This document shows, piece by piece, positions 46,230 to 55,096 of a stretch of 64,000 nucleotides of DNA (position 1 is the stretch's first letter; each line of letters starts with the position of its first letter). Origin of the DNA: an uncultured cyanobacterium (GTDB lineage Bacteria > Cyanobacteriota > Cyanobacteriia > Phormidesmidales > Phormidesmidaceae); NCBI GenBank assembly GCA_963793265.1, contig CAWBZI010000001.1, positions 160,001 through 224,000 of the forward strand. The letters run 5' to 3'. Position numbers and translations under genes: made by a program. The notes below the pieces were generated by a model. The model saw only the letters and a list, made by a program, of their open reading frames with translations, did not search any database and was not told the DNA's origin.

Positions 46230-48567
46230 TCACTTTAAATCGCCGAATTTAGGCGACCAAAAACCACCATCACGGCTTTGAAAAAACGCCACATCTTTGC
46301 ATTTTCCCTTGCGATTTTCCAGTAGCGAGCAGCGCAGCATAACCTTATCAACGCCTTCTTTTTGGTAGGCATGACGGATGAGTAAGGCCCCACAGATTCG
46401 GGCAAGGATGGTCGGTGAACGCTTTTGGATCGACCGGGCGCTGGGCATAGGGCAGCTCGTATCCTTTCTTCGCCGGATTCCAAAACATGACGGTATCGCA
46501 GCTAGACGATTCGCATTTTAAAAAGTGGTTTGCCTTTAGTTTTTTAGAGCGCGATGGAATTTTGCTCATGACTTGAGCGCATTTTGGGCATTTGGTTTTG
46601 CTTTTTTGGATCTGAGACTTTTCGGTCTGGGGCTTGTTTGCTTGGGGCTTTCTACGAGATTGTTTGCGCAGCGGCTTGTTTGATTTTGCTGTTGGGCTAG
46701 CTGTTGAAATAACTTTGCGACGGGTAGGCGCTGAAGTCTCTTTTGCGACAAGTGCTTTGGCTGGCGGTTGACTGACGTAGGTATCGGCAGCGTGCTGTAA
46801 GTCTCGCATGACGCCTGCGGAGAGCTTGGTCTTAGCTTGAGCGATCGCAGGTGCAAAGTAGTCTTTATGCCAGTCGGTCAAATACGTTTGCCAGTCTTGT
46901 TTACCAGCAGCGATCGCATCCAATTCATTCTCCATCTGCGCCGTAAAATCAGGCTCAATCAAATCAGGTAATAGCTTCTCCAAAGCTGCATCTAGCGACA
47001 GCCCTAGTTCAGTCGGCTGAAGCTTCCCTTTTACAAGGGTTGCATACGTTCTTGTCCGCAGCGTTTTAATCGTCGGCGCATACGTACTCGGACGCCCAAT
47101 GCCTTTGCGCTCCATCAGCTGCACTAGCTTAGGCTCGGTATATCTTGGTGGCGGTTGAGTCTGCTTCTGGTCAGCCTGCGCTTTTTCTAGTGTCACAGCC
47201 TGCCCTTCGTTTAACGTTGGTAGCTGCGAGTCGGCGCTTAAGTTATTCCAGTACTGGGTGTAGCCTGCGAACTCAACCACCTGCCCTCTCGCCTCCCAAT
47301 AAGCCTCTCCCGATTGGGTCACAATTCGCGTTTTACGCAGTTGAGCCGGACGACACTGAGAGGCTACAGCGCGATTCCAAATTAGCTCGTAGAGGTTAGC
47401 GGCATCGGTAGAGAGTGCGTTTTTGAGCTGCTGTGGAGTGGCGGTAACTTCAGTCGGACGGATAGCTTCGTGTGCGGCCTGCGCGTTTTTGGCTGAGCGA
47501 TGTTTGGCGGTTTGTTTAGGAACGTTGGCCGCATCGTGCTGGCTAAGGTAGTCTCTAACAGCGGCGCAGAAAGGGGCCGACAGTACAACAGAGTCGGTGC
47601 GCATGTAGGTGATGTGGCCCGCTTCGTAGAGTGACTGGGCCACTTTCATGGTTTGGTCAGGGGTGAAGCGGAGTTTGGAGCCTGCGGACTGCTGTAGCGT
47701 GGAGGTGATGAAGGGCGGCGGGGGCGATTGGCGGGTGAGTTTGCCTTGGATGGAGATGATTTTGTGGGGGGTGGTGCGGGCGATCGCAACCAGCCGATCC
47801 GCCTCAGCCTGCGTCGTCACCCGTTCAGACTCAGGCTCTTTTGATTTACCCGCTGACTTACCCTTCGAGCTAGCTTTATCAGCGCTATCTATCTCACTCT
47901 CCTCAGTCTTCTTAGGCCGACTAGCCGTAGGCTTCCGTCGATAAAAAGCTTTAAAGCCTTCCTGATAGCTCACCCATACGCTCCAATAGTCTTGTGGGGT
48001 AAACGCTTGAATCTCGCGCTCGCGCTGACACAGCAAATGGAGCGTCGCACTCTGCACACGCCCCATAGACTTCGCGCCGTTATTCAGCGGCCACACCACA
48101 TGGCGGCTACCTTTATAACCCACCAGCTTATCCAAACAATCACGCGCTCGACCCGCCGCAATTAAAGACTGATCGAGCACACGAGGATTTGCGACAGCGT
48201 TGCGAACCGCAGCGGGCGTAATTTCGCTGTATACAACGCGGTGAGGTTTCTTGAGGCGCAAAGCCTGCTGCAAATGCCAGCCGATCGTCTCGCCCTCGCG
48301 GTCGGGATCAGTCGCGATGTAAACCGTGTCCGCCTGCTTTACGGCCTGACGCAGGCCCGATATTGTCTTCTTGGCCCGCTCATCTCGCGGCGCATACTTG
48401 CAGTGAATCTGTCGGCCTTCCATATCGAAGCCTAAAGCATCTTCACCTTCATTAGTCAGCTCTCTGATATGGCCCATACTGGCTTTCACGATCCAACCAG
48501 GGCCTAGAATTTGGCTAAGCTTCTTCAGTTTTCCAGGGCTTTCGATCAGCAGCAGCTTAGCCATCAC
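46230..48567 (-). CDS. topA: Type IA DNA topoisomerase (secondary TopA), frameshifted near the C-terminus
   Basis: IESPGK, ATDPDREGE, GRVQS, ITYMRTDS, GIGRPSTY; last zinc ribbon continues in another frame to 46230. Confidence 0.9.
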
Positions 48568-48696
48568 GGTTGTCCTTTTTATAGGCTTGCGTAGCGCAGC
48601 AAACAGCCACCCTGCGCAAGCCTATTTTAGTACAAACGATCTTACTTAGCGAATTAAGAAAATCTGAGTTCTCTTATGTTCTCTAGGCGTTGTTCT

Positions 48697-49203
48697 CTAT
48701 GCGTCTACTTTTCTAGCAATCTGACGAACTTCTTCTATGCTTGACTCCGAGCCTCTAACAACAACTCTATAAATATCAGTCGCGTTAGGATCTGTCTTAT
48801 CCCTTTGCTTTTGGGGCTGAGAGGCAAGTGCTGCTTTACCGATGAACGCACCGAGCGTAGCACCGCCAAACGCCAAGCCGAGAATCAACAGGCGGTTGAA
48901 GTTGCTATTGGCATACATGCTGTCGTTCCAATAAACAAGAATTGGAACAATGATGACGCCCAGCAAGCTCCCGTAGAGGCCACCTAGCCAAAACCCAGCC
49001 GCACCGCCAGTAATCGTGCCCATCGCCTCTAGTCTGCTACGCAAGCTCGTTCTGTCATCGATAGCGACCTGCTCAATGGATGAACCTGCCGATTCGATGG
49101 CTTCCTTAACTTTTTGTGCAGACTGACGGTTGTTAAAGTTAGCAATAACCTCATCTTTAGAGCGGACAGATGGCTGATTGGGCCGTACTGATTGACTTGT
49201 CAT
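48697..49203 (-). CDS. Hypothetical membrane protein (two Gly-rich TM helices)
   Basis: 168 aa; VIANF...A, GGAAGFWLGG, YRVVVRG. Confidence 0.65.
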   Translation of the reverse strand: MTSQSVRPNQPSVRSKDEVIANFNNRQSAQKVKEAIESAGSSIEQVAIDDRTSLRSRLEAMGTITGGAAGFWLGGLYGSLLGVIIVPILVYWNDSMYANSNFNRLLILGLAFGGATLGAFIGKAALASQPQKQRDKTDPNATDIYRVVVRGSESSIEEVRQIARKVDA

Positions 49204-49374
49204 AAAATTGTTTTCCGTTGAAAGTAAGCAATGATTCTATGATGACGAGTCTGTTGTGGTGTTTTCTCTATAGCTTGATAGAGCCTATTAGTTCCGTGGA
49301 GAGAAAAAACACATGCTAGCTAGCTCAACAGCTCTGTCGGAAGATCGCTAGAAGATATCATCTTAAGCACGAGG

Positions 49375-49404
49375 GCGAGCCATCGGATACGTTTAATGGC
49401 TCGC
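49375..49404 (-). terminator. Hairpin downstream of the 82-aa ORF
   Basis: GCGAGCCAT...ATGGCTCGC, 13 bp past the stop. Confidence 0.45.
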
Positions 49405-49417
49405 TATATGGCTAGCG

Positions 49418-49666
49418 CTACAGTCTGACGCGGCGGGTCAATACGACCATAACTTCATTGCGATCGCCCGTTGGCACAGGCTTACTCCAATCGTTAGGCT
49501 CGGCGTAGTTGAGCTTGAACAAGGTGCGAATGGTCGCTTGGACTGCATGAAGGGAGCCCCGTATGGTGTGGGTCACAATCTCGGGGCTATCGTCTGAGGG
49601 AAATGAGGAATTGCCGACAGGAGGAACGGTGAACGCAGAGGCGTCCGGGCGAGCTGAAGTAAGCAT
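49418..49666 (-). CDS. Small conserved-looking cyanobacterial hypothetical protein (82 aa)
   Basis: SD AAAGGA upstream; GS..AV..TI..L..L.YAE...WS.P.PT....EVM..LTR pattern. Confidence 0.7.
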   Translation of the reverse strand: MLTSARPDASAFTVPPVGNSSFPSDDSPEIVTHTIRGSLHAVQATIRTLFKLNYAEPNDWSKPVPTGDRNEVMVVLTRRVRL

Positions 49667-49716
49667 AACGTTGAATTTCCTTTGTTTTTGTAGGAAACCA
49701 GAACCCCACTAAACCA

Positions 49717-49890
49717 AGCCACCCCGCGAAAATGTAGTGCAAATCGGGGTGGCTAGAGTAAAGTGACTCTAGCCGCCGGGACTGCCGATTAGTCCGGGGG
49801 GTTAGCTATCGGTAGGTGTTGACGCACCTATCGATAGTGCTGAGCGAAATCGAGTTCTGGCAAGAACGACTGTGATAGGCATCACAGCTT
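49717..49890 (-). promoter_or_regulatory. Multi-hairpin structured leader / candidate antisense RNA locus
   Basis: Six inverted repeats in 170 bp, two of them mutually exclusive. Confidence 0.65.
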
Positions 49891-49897
49891 AGAACTG

Positions 49898-49926
49898 ACG
49901 ATAATCTGATTCTTTGCTGCCGTCAA
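49898..49926 (-). promoter_or_regulatory. Sigma70-type promoter TTGACG-N17-TATCGT
   Basis: Minus strand TTGACG gcagcaaagaatcagat TATCGT directly before the hairpin array. Confidence 0.6.
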
Positions 49927-50035
49927 GTGGAAACGTATTTTTTCCGAGACGCCTCGGCGATTAACCCAAGTGCAAAGTCGAAAGTGTCTCATTATTTTCA
50001 AACCGCTTACTATGCTCAACCGTCGCTCTGATCTT

Positions 50036-50272
50036 TTAAGCGGCTGAATCTGCATACTGATAGACCGGAACTTCTATAAATTGCTGAGGCTCTGAGTCAT
50101 CTAGGATAAACGATTGCAATTTCTCTACTGTATCTAGCGAAAAGAGCTGTTCGCCTGTCTCTTCGTTTACTCTTGCTGGCACTCCTTTAATTACGATAAT
50201 TTTGCCGTCTATCTCCAACGTGTAAGTGACCAGTTTTTCTACCAAAGGTTCCTGCCAATTGTTATTTGCCAT
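50036..50272 (-). CDS. YgiT-type zinc-finger family / MqsA-like antitoxin partner
   Basis: VTYTLEIDGKIIVIKGVPARVNEETGEQLFS; overlaps the DUF4258 gene. Confidence 0.8.
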   Translation of the reverse strand: MANNNWQEPLVEKLVTYTLEIDGKIIVIKGVPARVNEETGEQLFSLDTVEKLQSFILDDSEPQQFIEVPVYQYADSAA

Positions 50273-50588
50273 TTTCAGTTTGTCTCCTCTCAGTAAAGCT
50301 ATTTGTCCAGATCTGCGGATCGGGTTCGTATAAAGTAATGACTTTGATTGACGGCCTAGATGGATAGGAGCATTGAATATGGATAGGACGCATATCCCTT
50401 GTAAAGCCGAATACTAAGCAGCTTGGCCCATATTTGTCATTTGGGTATTTTTCGATGATCTGACCGCTAGCGATCGCCTCTTTGATCTCCTGCACTCTGA
50501 TTTTTCGGATACCTGATTGATCAATAGCATGTTTAGAAAGCTCAACTTGATTTCTTTCGACTTTTTCGCGAATTTCATCAATCATCAA
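50262..50588 (-). CDS. DUF4258 family protein (putative RelE-like toxin)
   Basis: SKHA...R.I...EI, IIEKYPNDKYGPSCLVFG, PIHIQC, VITLYEPD. Confidence 0.88.
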   Translation of the reverse strand: MMIDEIREKVERNQVELSKHAIDQSGIRKIRVQEIKEAIASGQIIEKYPNDKYGPSCLVFGFTRDMRPIHIQCSYPSRPSIKVITLYEPDPQIWTNSFTERRQTENGK

Positions 50589-53884: not shown

Positions 53885-54130
53885 GGAAAAAATAGGCCAT
53901 CCAGAGTGTAGGCCAAAAAACTATCGAAAATCCAGGTTCGATTGAGGGGCGATCACCTGCATTCGGGCTGCGATCGCTTGCATTCGTTGTTTGAGGTTGC
54001 GGGCGGGTAAGTTAATAGCACGCTGAGCAAACAATCAATCTTGATATCGGCCATCTCGATTGATATCAGGCGCGCCGTTAAAAGTTCTCAGCATTGGGTG
54101 CTTTTTGATGGATATTTCTGGACTATAGCT

Positions 54131-55096
54131 ATGTTGAGAATTGCGATCGCAAAAACCCCTGAGCTAGTAGACGAAGTGCTCAAGCTGCGCCACCAGGTAT
54201 GGGGCGACGTGTGGGATGACGTTTGGGCCGATCAGCCCGATCAGCTTGTGCAAACCGATCCGACTCGCCTGATGGATCGGTTCGACACCTTCCCCTCCAC
54301 CACGCACATCGTTGCCATGGAGCAAACCCACCTGATCGGCAGCCTGCGCCTCACCCTCAACACATCCGCCGGAACCCCTGTCAGCGAGCTATACCATCTC
54401 AAGAGTACGCCGCCACCCGGACGCGTGCTCCTAAGCTGCGATTTACACTGCATTCACCCTTCCCATAGCGAGTCTTCAACTGCTGCTCAAACCACGTTGG
54501 GGCTAATGCTGATGGCTTGCTACGTCGGCATCAGCCAGCAGGTTACTCATATTGTCGCCTCTGTTCATCCTAAGAACGTCAGCCTGCTAGAGGGAATTGG
54601 GTTTCAGGTAATGGCCCATAAGATTACTCAAACCGCCGAAAAGCTCGATCATATTCCACTGATATTAAATATTAAAAGAGATCTTAAAGATGCATTTATG
54701 GAATTCTCTGAGCGCAACGAACTACAAGAGCTGATGCACTCGTACGGATGCGTACTCTATAGACCCGGAGAATCTATCTTGAGAGCAGGAACAACAGGCG
54801 ACTGCGCCTTTGTGATTGCCGATGGAGAAGTAGAAGTCAAGCACGCTGGCTCTCAAGCGGCAGTCGATACCATGGGCGTCGGTGAAGTGTTTGGCGAGCT
54901 AGCGCTATTAACAAATCAGGTACGCTCAGCAGACATTATCGCGAAAACTGAAGTGCGAGCAATGATCTTAGAAAAGTCTGTTTTTGTTGATCACCTCATG
55001 TCTGAGCCTAAAGTTGCGCTTAAGCTACTGACCAGCATGGGCCATCGTATGAAGCACCTGATCGATTATTGCAATACGCAAGAGATTAAAGCATAA
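54131..55096 (+). CDS. GNAT-fold N-acyltransferase (FeeM/LuxI-like) fused to a cyclic-nucleotide-binding domain
   Basis: LRHQVW, DRFD, IGSLRL in the N-half; GESIL..G..G..AFVI..GEVEV, FGELALL...RSA in the C-half. Confidence 0.75.
   Translation: MLRIAIAKTPELVDEVLKLRHQVWGDVWDDVWADQPDQLVQTDPTRLMDRFDTFPSTTHIVAMEQTHLIGSLRLTLNTSAGTPVSELYHLKSTPPPGRVLLSCDLHCIHPSHSESSTAAQTTLGLMLMACYVGISQQVTHIVASVHPKNVSLLEGIGFQVMAHKITQTAEKLDHIPLILNIKRDLKDAFMEFSERNELQELMHSYGCVLYRPGESILRAGTTGDCAFVIADGEVEVKHAGSQAAVDTMGVGEVFGELALLTNQVRSADIIAKTEVRAMILEKSVFVDHLMSEPKVALKLLTSMGHRMKHLIDYCNTQEIKA

Follow-up and report, generated by a model that had tools for sequence, protein, structure and literature searches.

The DNA analyzed in this study, a 64,000-nt stretch referred to here as the window, comes from an uncultured cyanobacterium of the Phormidesmidaceae (assembly GCA_963793265.1, contig CAWBZI010000001.1, positions 160,001-224,000 of the forward strand). 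Between topA and a GMC oxidoreductase gene lies a variable island of 2.0 kb (48568-50584), which forms the context of, and reaches beyond, the cassette under study (49375-49926, gene on the minus strand). Besides the cassette, the island holds a DUF4258 gene (50262-50588) and a YgiT-finger gene (50036-50272), both upstream of the cassette and recognized by Pfam/NCBIfam matches, and a 168-aa membrane ORF (48697-49203) with two predicted hydrophobic stretches and weak family matches. The DUF4258 and YgiT-finger genes (50036-50588) make up a candidate MqsRA-like type II toxin-antitoxin pair, with related DNA at G000:C5:316345-316869; such a pair has been put forward as an MqsR-like toxin and antitoxin in Synechocystis (available text of bioRxiv 10.64898/2025.12.20.695498). 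The topA gene (46348-48567) encodes a type IA topoisomerase of 739 aa whose C-terminal tail is rich in lysine; it is probably a secondary topA, and many congeners have it. In congener G376, the GMC oxidoreductase gene and topA are 174 bp apart with no leader between them, so the island is missing there, and none of nine congener loci has a leader beside the GMC gene. A functional tie of the cassette to the DUF4258/YgiT pair or to topA was considered and rejected, because the neighboring genes change from copy to copy.

The cassette consists of a structured leader and an 82-aa ORF, and it is repeated. The ORF family has 24 copies in the 5.68-Mb genome of the window, 12 of them close and 12 distant. 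In the same genome, 23 matches were obtained with a covariance model built from the leader, every one ahead of a member of the ORF family, and the 24th member is truncated and has no leader (L090, G000:C4:698553-698765; it lies right behind an apparently broken PIN-type toxin gene). The three closest paralogues are 83-93% identical to the window copy, and this identity has sharp ends: it sets in 6-7 nt ahead of the -35 box and stops no more than 26 nt after the stop codon. A Uma2 gene lies within 1 kb of 6 of the 24 copies, where 0.46 would be expected. The copy in the window is carried by a 1.9-Mb contig. Beyond this genome, a protein profile found matches in at least 37 of 301 genomes of the phylum, with 18 candidates scored per genome; the ORF family forms 548 clusters at 50% identity and is present on 13 cyanobacterial plasmids. 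The leader model has matches in 31 of 101 genomes of the class, with the highest number, 48, in G331.

The gene is preceded by a minus-strand promoter signature with the -35 hexamer TTGACG (49926-49921), a 17-nt spacer and the -10 hexamer TATCGT (49903-49898), which places the predicted mRNA start at about 49891. The promoter scan alone returned 5 sites against 2.8 expected and is not significant by itself; the promoter scores at least 8/12 with 17-18-nt spacing in 72 of 77 homologues. Folding of the 256-nt leader gave z scores of -5.2 on the minus strand and -4.6 on the plus strand, and none of 200 shuffles was as good. Rfam returned nothing at gathering score in the window, and the seven matches down to E 10 in 49200-50100 were at chance level, none of them of C4 type. 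For comparative analysis, 80 fetched loci and 10 of the genome's own copies were reduced to 77 distinct leader cores (the training set, mean identity 65%) by leaving out 11 loci that lacked upstream DNA or a start, one truncated locus and one duplicate. A further 95 leaders served as a held-out set, whose alignment was fitted to the model.

Two sets of helices emerge from the alignment, and the labels a1, a', a2, b1 and b' were coined in this analysis. The first set, here called the ON fold, joins a1:a', b1:b' and the hairpins D, C and B. It is paired in 88.2% of alignment cells over the 77 leaders and has double-sided changes in 30 of 44 pairs; none of 500 shuffles reached it, and slid controls gave at most 49.5%. 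In the held-out leaders, with their alignment fitted to the model, 37 of 40 pairs have double changes. RNAalifold independently recovered a1:a', D, C and A. The strand on which a helix is maintained can be read from its imperfect pairs, as a G.U pair on one strand is an A.C mismatch on the other; the counts given below are of alignment cells and not of independent events. The helix a1:a' (a1 at 49850-49859, a' at 49693-49707, both on the minus strand) is paired in 96.7% of cells, is doubly changed in 7 of 10 pairs, and on the mRNA strand has 70 G.U against 9 A.C. The helix b1:b' (b1 at 49839-49844) is 92% paired with 102 G.U against 13 A.C on the mRNA strand, and since b' (49714-49719) is the 3' foot of hairpin A, b1 would provide the anti-terminator helix of the ON fold. 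Hairpin B (49751-49774, minus strand), predicted to be the first to form in the nascent mRNA and to hide the 5' arm of A, is 79% paired with 64 G.U against 23 A.C. At the 5' end of the leader is hairpin F (49870-49887), variable in sequence; among the 72 homologues whose promoter was scored, 70 have a hairpin in this region with an energy of -4 kcal/mol or lower.

The second set is centered on the terminator-like hairpin A (49717-49754; 49714-49754 with b'), which would represent the OFF state. Hairpin A is 86% paired, with G.U over A.C counts on the mRNA strand of 68 against 39 in the training leaders and 62 against 33 in the held-out leaders. It excludes both B and b1:b', and a' pairs with either a1 or a2, the latter being the ribosome-binding region (AGGA, 49674-49681). 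At least four U follow hairpin A in 43 of 95 held-out and 10 of 77 training leaders; the window copy has no run of four U, so that control in this copy is more likely translational than terminator based. The anti-Shine-Dalgarno duplex a':a2 has a mean energy of -19.4 kcal/mol compared to -7.9 kcal/mol for shuffled sequences and beats the latter in 76 of 77 leaders, although it reaches only -9.4 kcal/mol in the window copy. Computationally, the leader is thus predicted to hide its ribosome-binding site through a':a2, as leaders do in type I toxin-antitoxin systems.

Hairpins D and C, in contrast, favor the other strand. Hairpin D (49805-49838) is 98.5% paired when read as antisense and 88.9% when read as mRNA, and on the mRNA strand it has 94 A.C against 5 G.U (held-out, 114 against 5). 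Hairpin C (49771-49803) has 144 A.C against 21 G.U on the mRNA strand (held-out, 99 against 11). The sign of the G.U/A.C bias therefore flips within one strand, which a general mutation bias does not explain. The segment with C and D folds to a lower energy as antisense than as mRNA in 75 of 77 and in 95 of 95 homologues, and positions 49771-49850 of the window fold with a z score of -5.63 on the plus strand and -2.72 on the minus strand.

These comparisons bear on a preliminary description of the same DNA, whose promoter, hairpins and 82-aa ORF all lie where it had placed them. Its suggestion that the overlapping A and B form a mutually exclusive switch was borne out by alignment and folding, and its remark that the G.U pairs of D fall on the plus strand, so that a plus-strand transcript might be the folded species, agrees with the strand counts and folds for both C and D. 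It had proposed an RNA-plus-small-protein control unit and a search for covariation upstream of ORF homologues; with homologues collected and leaders aligned, the structure proved to be conserved and covarying in the 77 leaders and the 95 held-out ones. Two of its minor features are there but do not appear meaningful. Hairpin E is present in the window copy but kept in just 6 of 77 homologues, and the downstream hairpin at 49375-49404, also present, is not reached by alignment with the three closest paralogues, as these alignments stop no more than 26 nt from the stop codon. The opposite-strand promoter within B and A, the long-range helices a1:a' and b1:b', the anti-Shine-Dalgarno helix and a multicopy cassette unrelated to its neighbors go beyond that description.

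A promoter signature for the plus strand lies within the loops of the two mRNA-strand hairpins. It combines a -35-like hexamer GTGCAA in the loop of A (49737-49742), a 16-nt spacer and a -10 hexamer TAAAGT in the loop of B (49759-49764). In all 77 leaders, two columns of the B loop do not vary, and these are A2 and T6 of the opposite-strand -10. The box itself is found in 77 of 77 training and 94 of 95 held-out leaders, and a -10 score of at least 4/6 in 76 training and 91 held-out leaders compared to about 12 in shuffles. A -35-like hexamer of at least 3/6 stands 16-18 nt upstream in 72 of 77 training leaders, against 32.7 in shuffled ones; by a second placement, the -35 is present in 67 of 77 training and 11 of 94 held-out leaders. 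The extended -10 TG on this strand shows the opposite distribution (73 of 94 held-out, 0 of 77 training). Sense and antisense promoter signatures, the one in 72 of 77 leaders and the other in 171 of 172, are convergent and flank the target stem-loops, as judged by sequence. We infer from these signatures a cis-antisense RNA of at least 70 nt on the plus strand, starting at about 49771, some 7 nt past the -10, and containing C' and D' as its first and second stem-loops; it would extend at least to 49838 and is drawn here up to a1 (49771-49860). Behind D', a U run is seen in 56 of 95 held-out but only 3 of 77 training leaders, and the subfamily of the window copy shows no U-run terminator for the predicted antisense RNA. 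YUNR (U-turn) motifs are more frequent in antisense than in sense loops (36 vs 20 and 34 vs 11 of 77), and they are not relied on because they are not universal.

The arrangement suggests a portable cassette with two convergent promoters, in which the minus-strand promoter would yield an mRNA with a 225-nt leader and the second promoter, hidden in A and B on the plus strand, a short antisense RNA with C' and D'. In the absence of the antisense RNA, the nascent leader would fold B, b1:b' and a1:a', so that A is blocked and the ribosome site is free (ON). The antisense RNA would kiss the loops of C and D and zip over the 5' arm of B, over C, D and b1, and perhaps over a1. Hairpin A would then form, acting as a terminator in the copies with a U run, and a' would fold onto the ribosome site (OFF). 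Leaving aside whether the cargo is toxic, we regard such an antisense switch as very probable on the sequence evidence.

Folding with the antisense-covered stretch masked is in keeping with this direction of switching. Hairpin A forms in 74 of 77 masked training leaders compared to 44 of 77 free ones, and in the held-out set in 83 of 92 compared to 43 of 92, with 3 of the 95 rows gapped at the scored pair. On average, masking reduces the openness of the ribosome site from 0.38 to 0.29, and a clear decrease is confined to 33 of the 77 leaders. At equilibrium the free leaders already have A in 44 and a1:a' in 28 of 77, the two folds being nearly equal in energy. The equilibrium switch is thus partial, and the model leans on the order of synthesis. 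Because B is finished while the 3' arm of A is still to be made, synthesis order should favor ON when the antisense RNA is missing, a co-transcriptional preference that we infer by analogy with known attenuators (available text of PMC2879508).

The loops of C (49784-49790) and D (49819-49824) are hypervariable. In 77 close pairs of leaders, chosen for a divergence of at most 10% outside the loops, the C and D loops have diverged by 50%, compared to 5.6% for the rest of the leader and 16% for the A loop, a contrast that the choice of pairs and the gaps inflate. Four-fold sites of the ORF diverge by 34.5%, and the loops exceed this value in just 55 of 77 pairs. Since pair selection and gaps favor the contrast, diversifying selection on the loops is likely rather than proven. 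Among the own-genome copies examined, no two share a C/D loop pair (10 of 10 and 12 of 12 distinct), and the pairs are distinct in 30 of 30 copies of G331 and in 16 of 17 copies of G313. Because target and regulator would be two strands of the same DNA, loop changes should be self-compensating, giving each copy a private address, and private addresses would allow two dozen copies to coexist. The copy-specific loops are consistent with such insulation between co-resident copies.

The gene under this predicted control (49418-49666, minus strand) encodes 82 aa, comprising a variable N-terminal tail and a 55-aa beta-alpha-beta domain, and the product is predicted to be a soluble homodimer. The ORF is under purifying selection, with 7.9% divergence at second codon positions against the 34.5% at four-fold sites in the 77 close pairs. 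Its core was modeled as strand-helix-strand with a pLDDT of 93. The 19-residue hydropathy maximum of 0.43 indicates no transmembrane helix, and only 4 of 215 relatives reach 1.6. Type I toxins are usually short hydrophobic transmembrane peptides, with SymE and RalR as exceptions. A homodimer modeled through the first strand scored 0.70, the best of three controls scoring 0.00; the mark used for this score is reached by 20 of 30 solved homodimers and by 1 of 23 monomers. Dimer model runs agreed in at least 94% of contacts with pLDDT of at least 83, and a tandem fusion of two domains occurs naturally (P0079). The models thus support a homodimer via the first strand.

The family to which this protein belongs has no name in the collections searched. 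No family was matched in Pfam, NCBIfam, PHROGs or PADLOC, also when 123 aligned relatives were compared with NCBIfam, Pfam and PHROG models at useful E-values, and no toxin, defense or phage family matched the protein. A PDB sequence search gave one chance-level match. Fold searches returned nothing at E of 0.001 or below or Z of 5 or above, so that the fold is neither named nor excluded. The ESM Atlas returned only unnamed cyanobacterial clusters, and the automatic name of one of them, "putative peptide ABC transporter substrate-binding protein", was rejected as a label without a family. A likeness to MinE was dropped: comparison with 25 cyanobacterial MinE proteins gave a profile-profile probability of 0.4%, and the structures aligned with Z 4.0 and an rmsd of 5.1 over 59 residues, tied with unrelated folds. 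No fused forms of 199-2000 aa were scored, which is weak evidence. A shorter fusion is found at L081 (2464-2916, plus strand; G000:C5:175463), where a 150-aa ORF starts with the ribosome site and the opening 20 codons known from the 82-aa gene and continues into an unrelated domain. This ORF is followed by a 138-aa ORF, lies 1.2 kb upstream of an intact cassette, and has no leader and no family matches; it looks like an exchange of cargo by recombination.

Cargo exchange is also seen among leaders of other genomes, where the leader precedes at least five unrelated kinds of gene. A survey of 53 leaders (30 of the 48 in G331, 17 in G313, 5 in G231 and 1 in G002; clusters read by hand) assigned 18 to a 115-197-aa family, 11 to a 72-aa helical family, 5 to the 82-aa family, 4 to a winged-helix-like family, 3 to another 72-aa family and 1 to a 213-aa ORF, with 11 unresolved. 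No curated family was found for these other cargoes, and neither they nor a G331 leader had plasmid matches. The unnamed 115-197-aa family (L180, L191-L219 in G331, and L169) is the commonest cargo in G331, with 17 of the 30 loci read, and often has a palindromic insert between leader and gene. The unnamed 72-aa helical protein (L181, L217, L221, L226 and L228-L237, in G313 and G331) is the main cargo of G313, where near-identical copies have different loops. The 213-aa cargo (L186:1688-2326, G231) has a PD-(D/E)xK-nuclease-like motif by eye and no family match.

Conversely, members of the ORF family occur without the leader. Among 29 distant loci of the family, 8 have the leader and 21 lack it. 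Of the latter, 7 face a divergent gene of XRE/Cro HTH type, 4 a divergent ribbon-helix-helix-like gene (3 with ParG matches), 5 lie behind a small gene on the same strand (with a weak HTH match in one case) and 5 have none of these; a Trichormus plasmid copy also faces parG. The leaderless loci that stand head to head with small XRE-type or ribbon-helix-helix genes (L105, L107, L108, L112, L113, L116, L120, L124, L125, L127, L128 and L159) are possibly a repressor-controlled form of the same module. Four other leaderless members (L109, L114, L115 and L117) carry one or two small hairpins in a short leader, which in three of them are built on the HIP1-like palindrome GCGATCGC.

Leaderless loci that face repressor genes, together with a leader that swaps its cargo, point to a harmful product, and the tight, copy-specific silencing proposed here would make the cargo most likely growth inhibitory. 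The absence of any match to a toxin family speaks against toxicity. As in type I toxin-antitoxin systems, the cargo would be released when the antisense supply stops, either by loss of the DNA or by shut-off of host transcription. To the joint claim of an antisense switch and a toxic cargo, we assign a probability of about 0.58. A more tentative extension, which we place short of even odds, is that cyanobacteria possess a large, so far unrecognized class of RNA-antitoxin modules, in which antisense attenuators insulated from one another and numbering up to 48 per genome serve as a portable dead-man's switch for interchangeable, uncharacterized soluble effectors, responding for example to phage-driven shut-off of transcription.

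The same antisense switch could instead control a harmless regulator or adaptor and act as a sensor that activates genes for a short time upon duplication, transfer to a naive cell or a drop in transcription. The lack of any toxin family match and the predicted soluble, dimeric fold would suit such a cargo, as would the winged-helix-like cargoes of 4 of the 53 leaders, which have weak HTH and replication-initiator matches (initiator E 0.007, one cargo), and the nine Bartonella Brt RNAs, which precede HTH regulators (available text of PMC5387305). Private loops in 23 to 48 copies per genome and patchy insertion in toxin-antitoxin/nuclease hotspots nevertheless fit a harmful, selfish cargo better, and the same is true of the replacement of RNA control by a dedicated repressor gene. 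A harmless cargo is therefore rather unlikely, though it keeps real weight.

A different emphasis would make the plus-strand RNA an sRNA that acts in trans by way of its variable loops, or the hairpins single-stranded DNA signals of a mobile element, with control of the ORF secondary. Hairpins C and D are indeed selected on the plus strand, and G.T pairs work in single-stranded DNA too; among congeners the leader is better conserved than the ORF, with matches that mostly cover the leader alone, and the cassette ends are sharp. Against this, promoter signatures on both strands, the anti-Shine-Dalgarno helix in 76 of 77 leaders and the G.U pairs that a1:a' and b1:b' keep on the mRNA strand connect the structure with ORF expression. 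In addition, the 23 covariance-model matches of the own genome include no orphan leader without an ORF-family gene behind it, and no transposase is found among the nearest neighbors of the 23 other own-genome copies. We judge this account improbable.

Still less probable is a switch that acts in cis alone, as a riboswitch, thermometer or protein-bound attenuator, with incidental signals on the opposite strand. Two exclusive mRNA folds of similar energy and an anti-Shine-Dalgarno helix do resemble expression platforms. The loops, however, are conserved less than any other part, whereas an aptamer would show the opposite; C and D contain A.C mismatches when read as mRNA; the invariant opposite-strand -10 with its compensating TG or -35 would have no role; and Rfam offers no match.

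The antisense switch favored here has precedents. The plasmid systems pT181, pIP501 and pAMbeta1 are antisense-RNA-driven transcription attenuators. Together with Shigella RnaG/icsA (available text of PMC2879508), they are like the cassette as modeled here in having convergent promoters, a cis-antisense RNA of stem-loops, a long complementary leader that refolds to a terminator-like hairpin on binding, and variable loops as a specificity code. The exclusive anti-terminator and terminator folds of the cassette, shifted toward A by masking, reproduce an attenuator trait computationally. Unlike the pT181/pIP501 type, the cassette is chromosomal, has up to 48 copies per genome, precedes small unnamed ORFs and has an additional long-range anti-Shine-Dalgarno switch; its cargo is neither a plasmid replication initiator nor a virulence gene as in RnaG/icsA, and no sequence or Rfam relationship to attenuators of the pT181/pIP501 type was detected.

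With type I toxin-antitoxin systems, the cassette shares a small ORF, a structured leader that hides the ribosome site, a predicted antisense RNA with its own promoter, and a multicopy, patchy distribution. It differs in that the protein is soluble and of no known toxin family, and in that both the cargo and the kind of repressor are exchangeable. For cyanobacteria, no such system was reported to be known before a candidate was described in 2025 (available text of PMC12390103). The cyanobacterial candidates MsoT1/MsoA1 and Ncl1450/Ncr1470 encode membrane peptides and are set apart from the cassette by their descriptions (available text of PMC12390103 and of bioRxiv 10.64898/2025.12.20.695498). 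Bartonella Brt1-9 are likewise structured leaders of about 200 nt that recur within one genome, each ahead of a small gene with poor expression; they differ in their Trp HTH cargo, in the proposed riboswitch plus trans role and in phylum, and the available text of PMC5387305 names no cis-antisense partner. The tandem-repeat RNAs of Trichodesmium, compared by description only, are called unique to that genome (available text of PMC4143802).

The preliminary description had likened the locus to the C4 RNA of phage P1 and to P4 CI. These RNAs, the C4 RNA of phage P7 and the multicopy chromosomal C4-like RNAs of Acinetobacter baumannii do share a variable loop, small genes beside them and an element complementary to sites on both sides; C4, however, is processed by RNase P from the same strand and pairs through short loops, whereas the RNA predicted here would come from the opposite strand and its own promoter with full complementarity (available text of PMC5320573). 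The kissing between GGCA and TGCC loops on which the analogy drew finds no counterpart in the homologues, as a TGCC-type C loop falls inside the loop columns in 0 of 77, and a D loop equal to the own -35 occurs in the window copy only (1 of 77). For the variable loops of 77 leaders, matches to the own transcript are no better than those to other transcripts (4.49 vs 4.47 and 4.57 vs 4.53 nt), and C-D kissing has no support in the same leaders, so that both the C4/CI scheme and GGCA/TGCC kissing were rejected. The least probable account is a regulator cut from the same transcript with loops that pair upstream and downstream: a' is complementary to the upstream a1 and the downstream a2 and specificity loops vary, as in C4 (available text of PMC5320573), but a' is constant and lies outside the loops, the proposed check against Rfam C4-type models gave no match, no same-strand loop target or icd/ash/kil-type family was found, and the phage collections searched hold no relative. 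A phage origin of the cassette was rejected on the last ground: the protein has no relatives in IMG/VR or INPHARED, and two leader patterns gave one match in phage collections, L240, a lone hairpin without C and D.

By its sequence, the cassette is best read as working like pT181/pIP501-type attenuators and 5'-overlap type I toxin-antitoxin pairs, and not as a member of the C4/CI group. The family is apparently undescribed, as no description of it was found in the literature searched or in Rfam, with the proviso that supplementary start-site tables or RNA-motif catalogues could already list the RNAs. Antisense-driven attenuation is known mainly from plasmids, and the present reading, if true, would add a widespread chromosomal family that joins it with type I toxin-antitoxin control. 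It would also add new RNA and protein families, allow a test in nature of how cross-talk is avoided among dozens of paralogous RNA switches, and supply cyanobacterial synthetic biology with a naturally occurring set of orthogonal antisense switches. The exact coordinates of promoters, loops and helices make each step open to reporter tests. Elsewhere in the window, a gene at 54041-55096 fuses a FeeM-like N-acyl amino acid synthase domain to a cyclic-nucleotide-binding domain and lies upstream of a large ORF that, judged by eye, is filamentous-haemagglutinin-like/CHAT-like.
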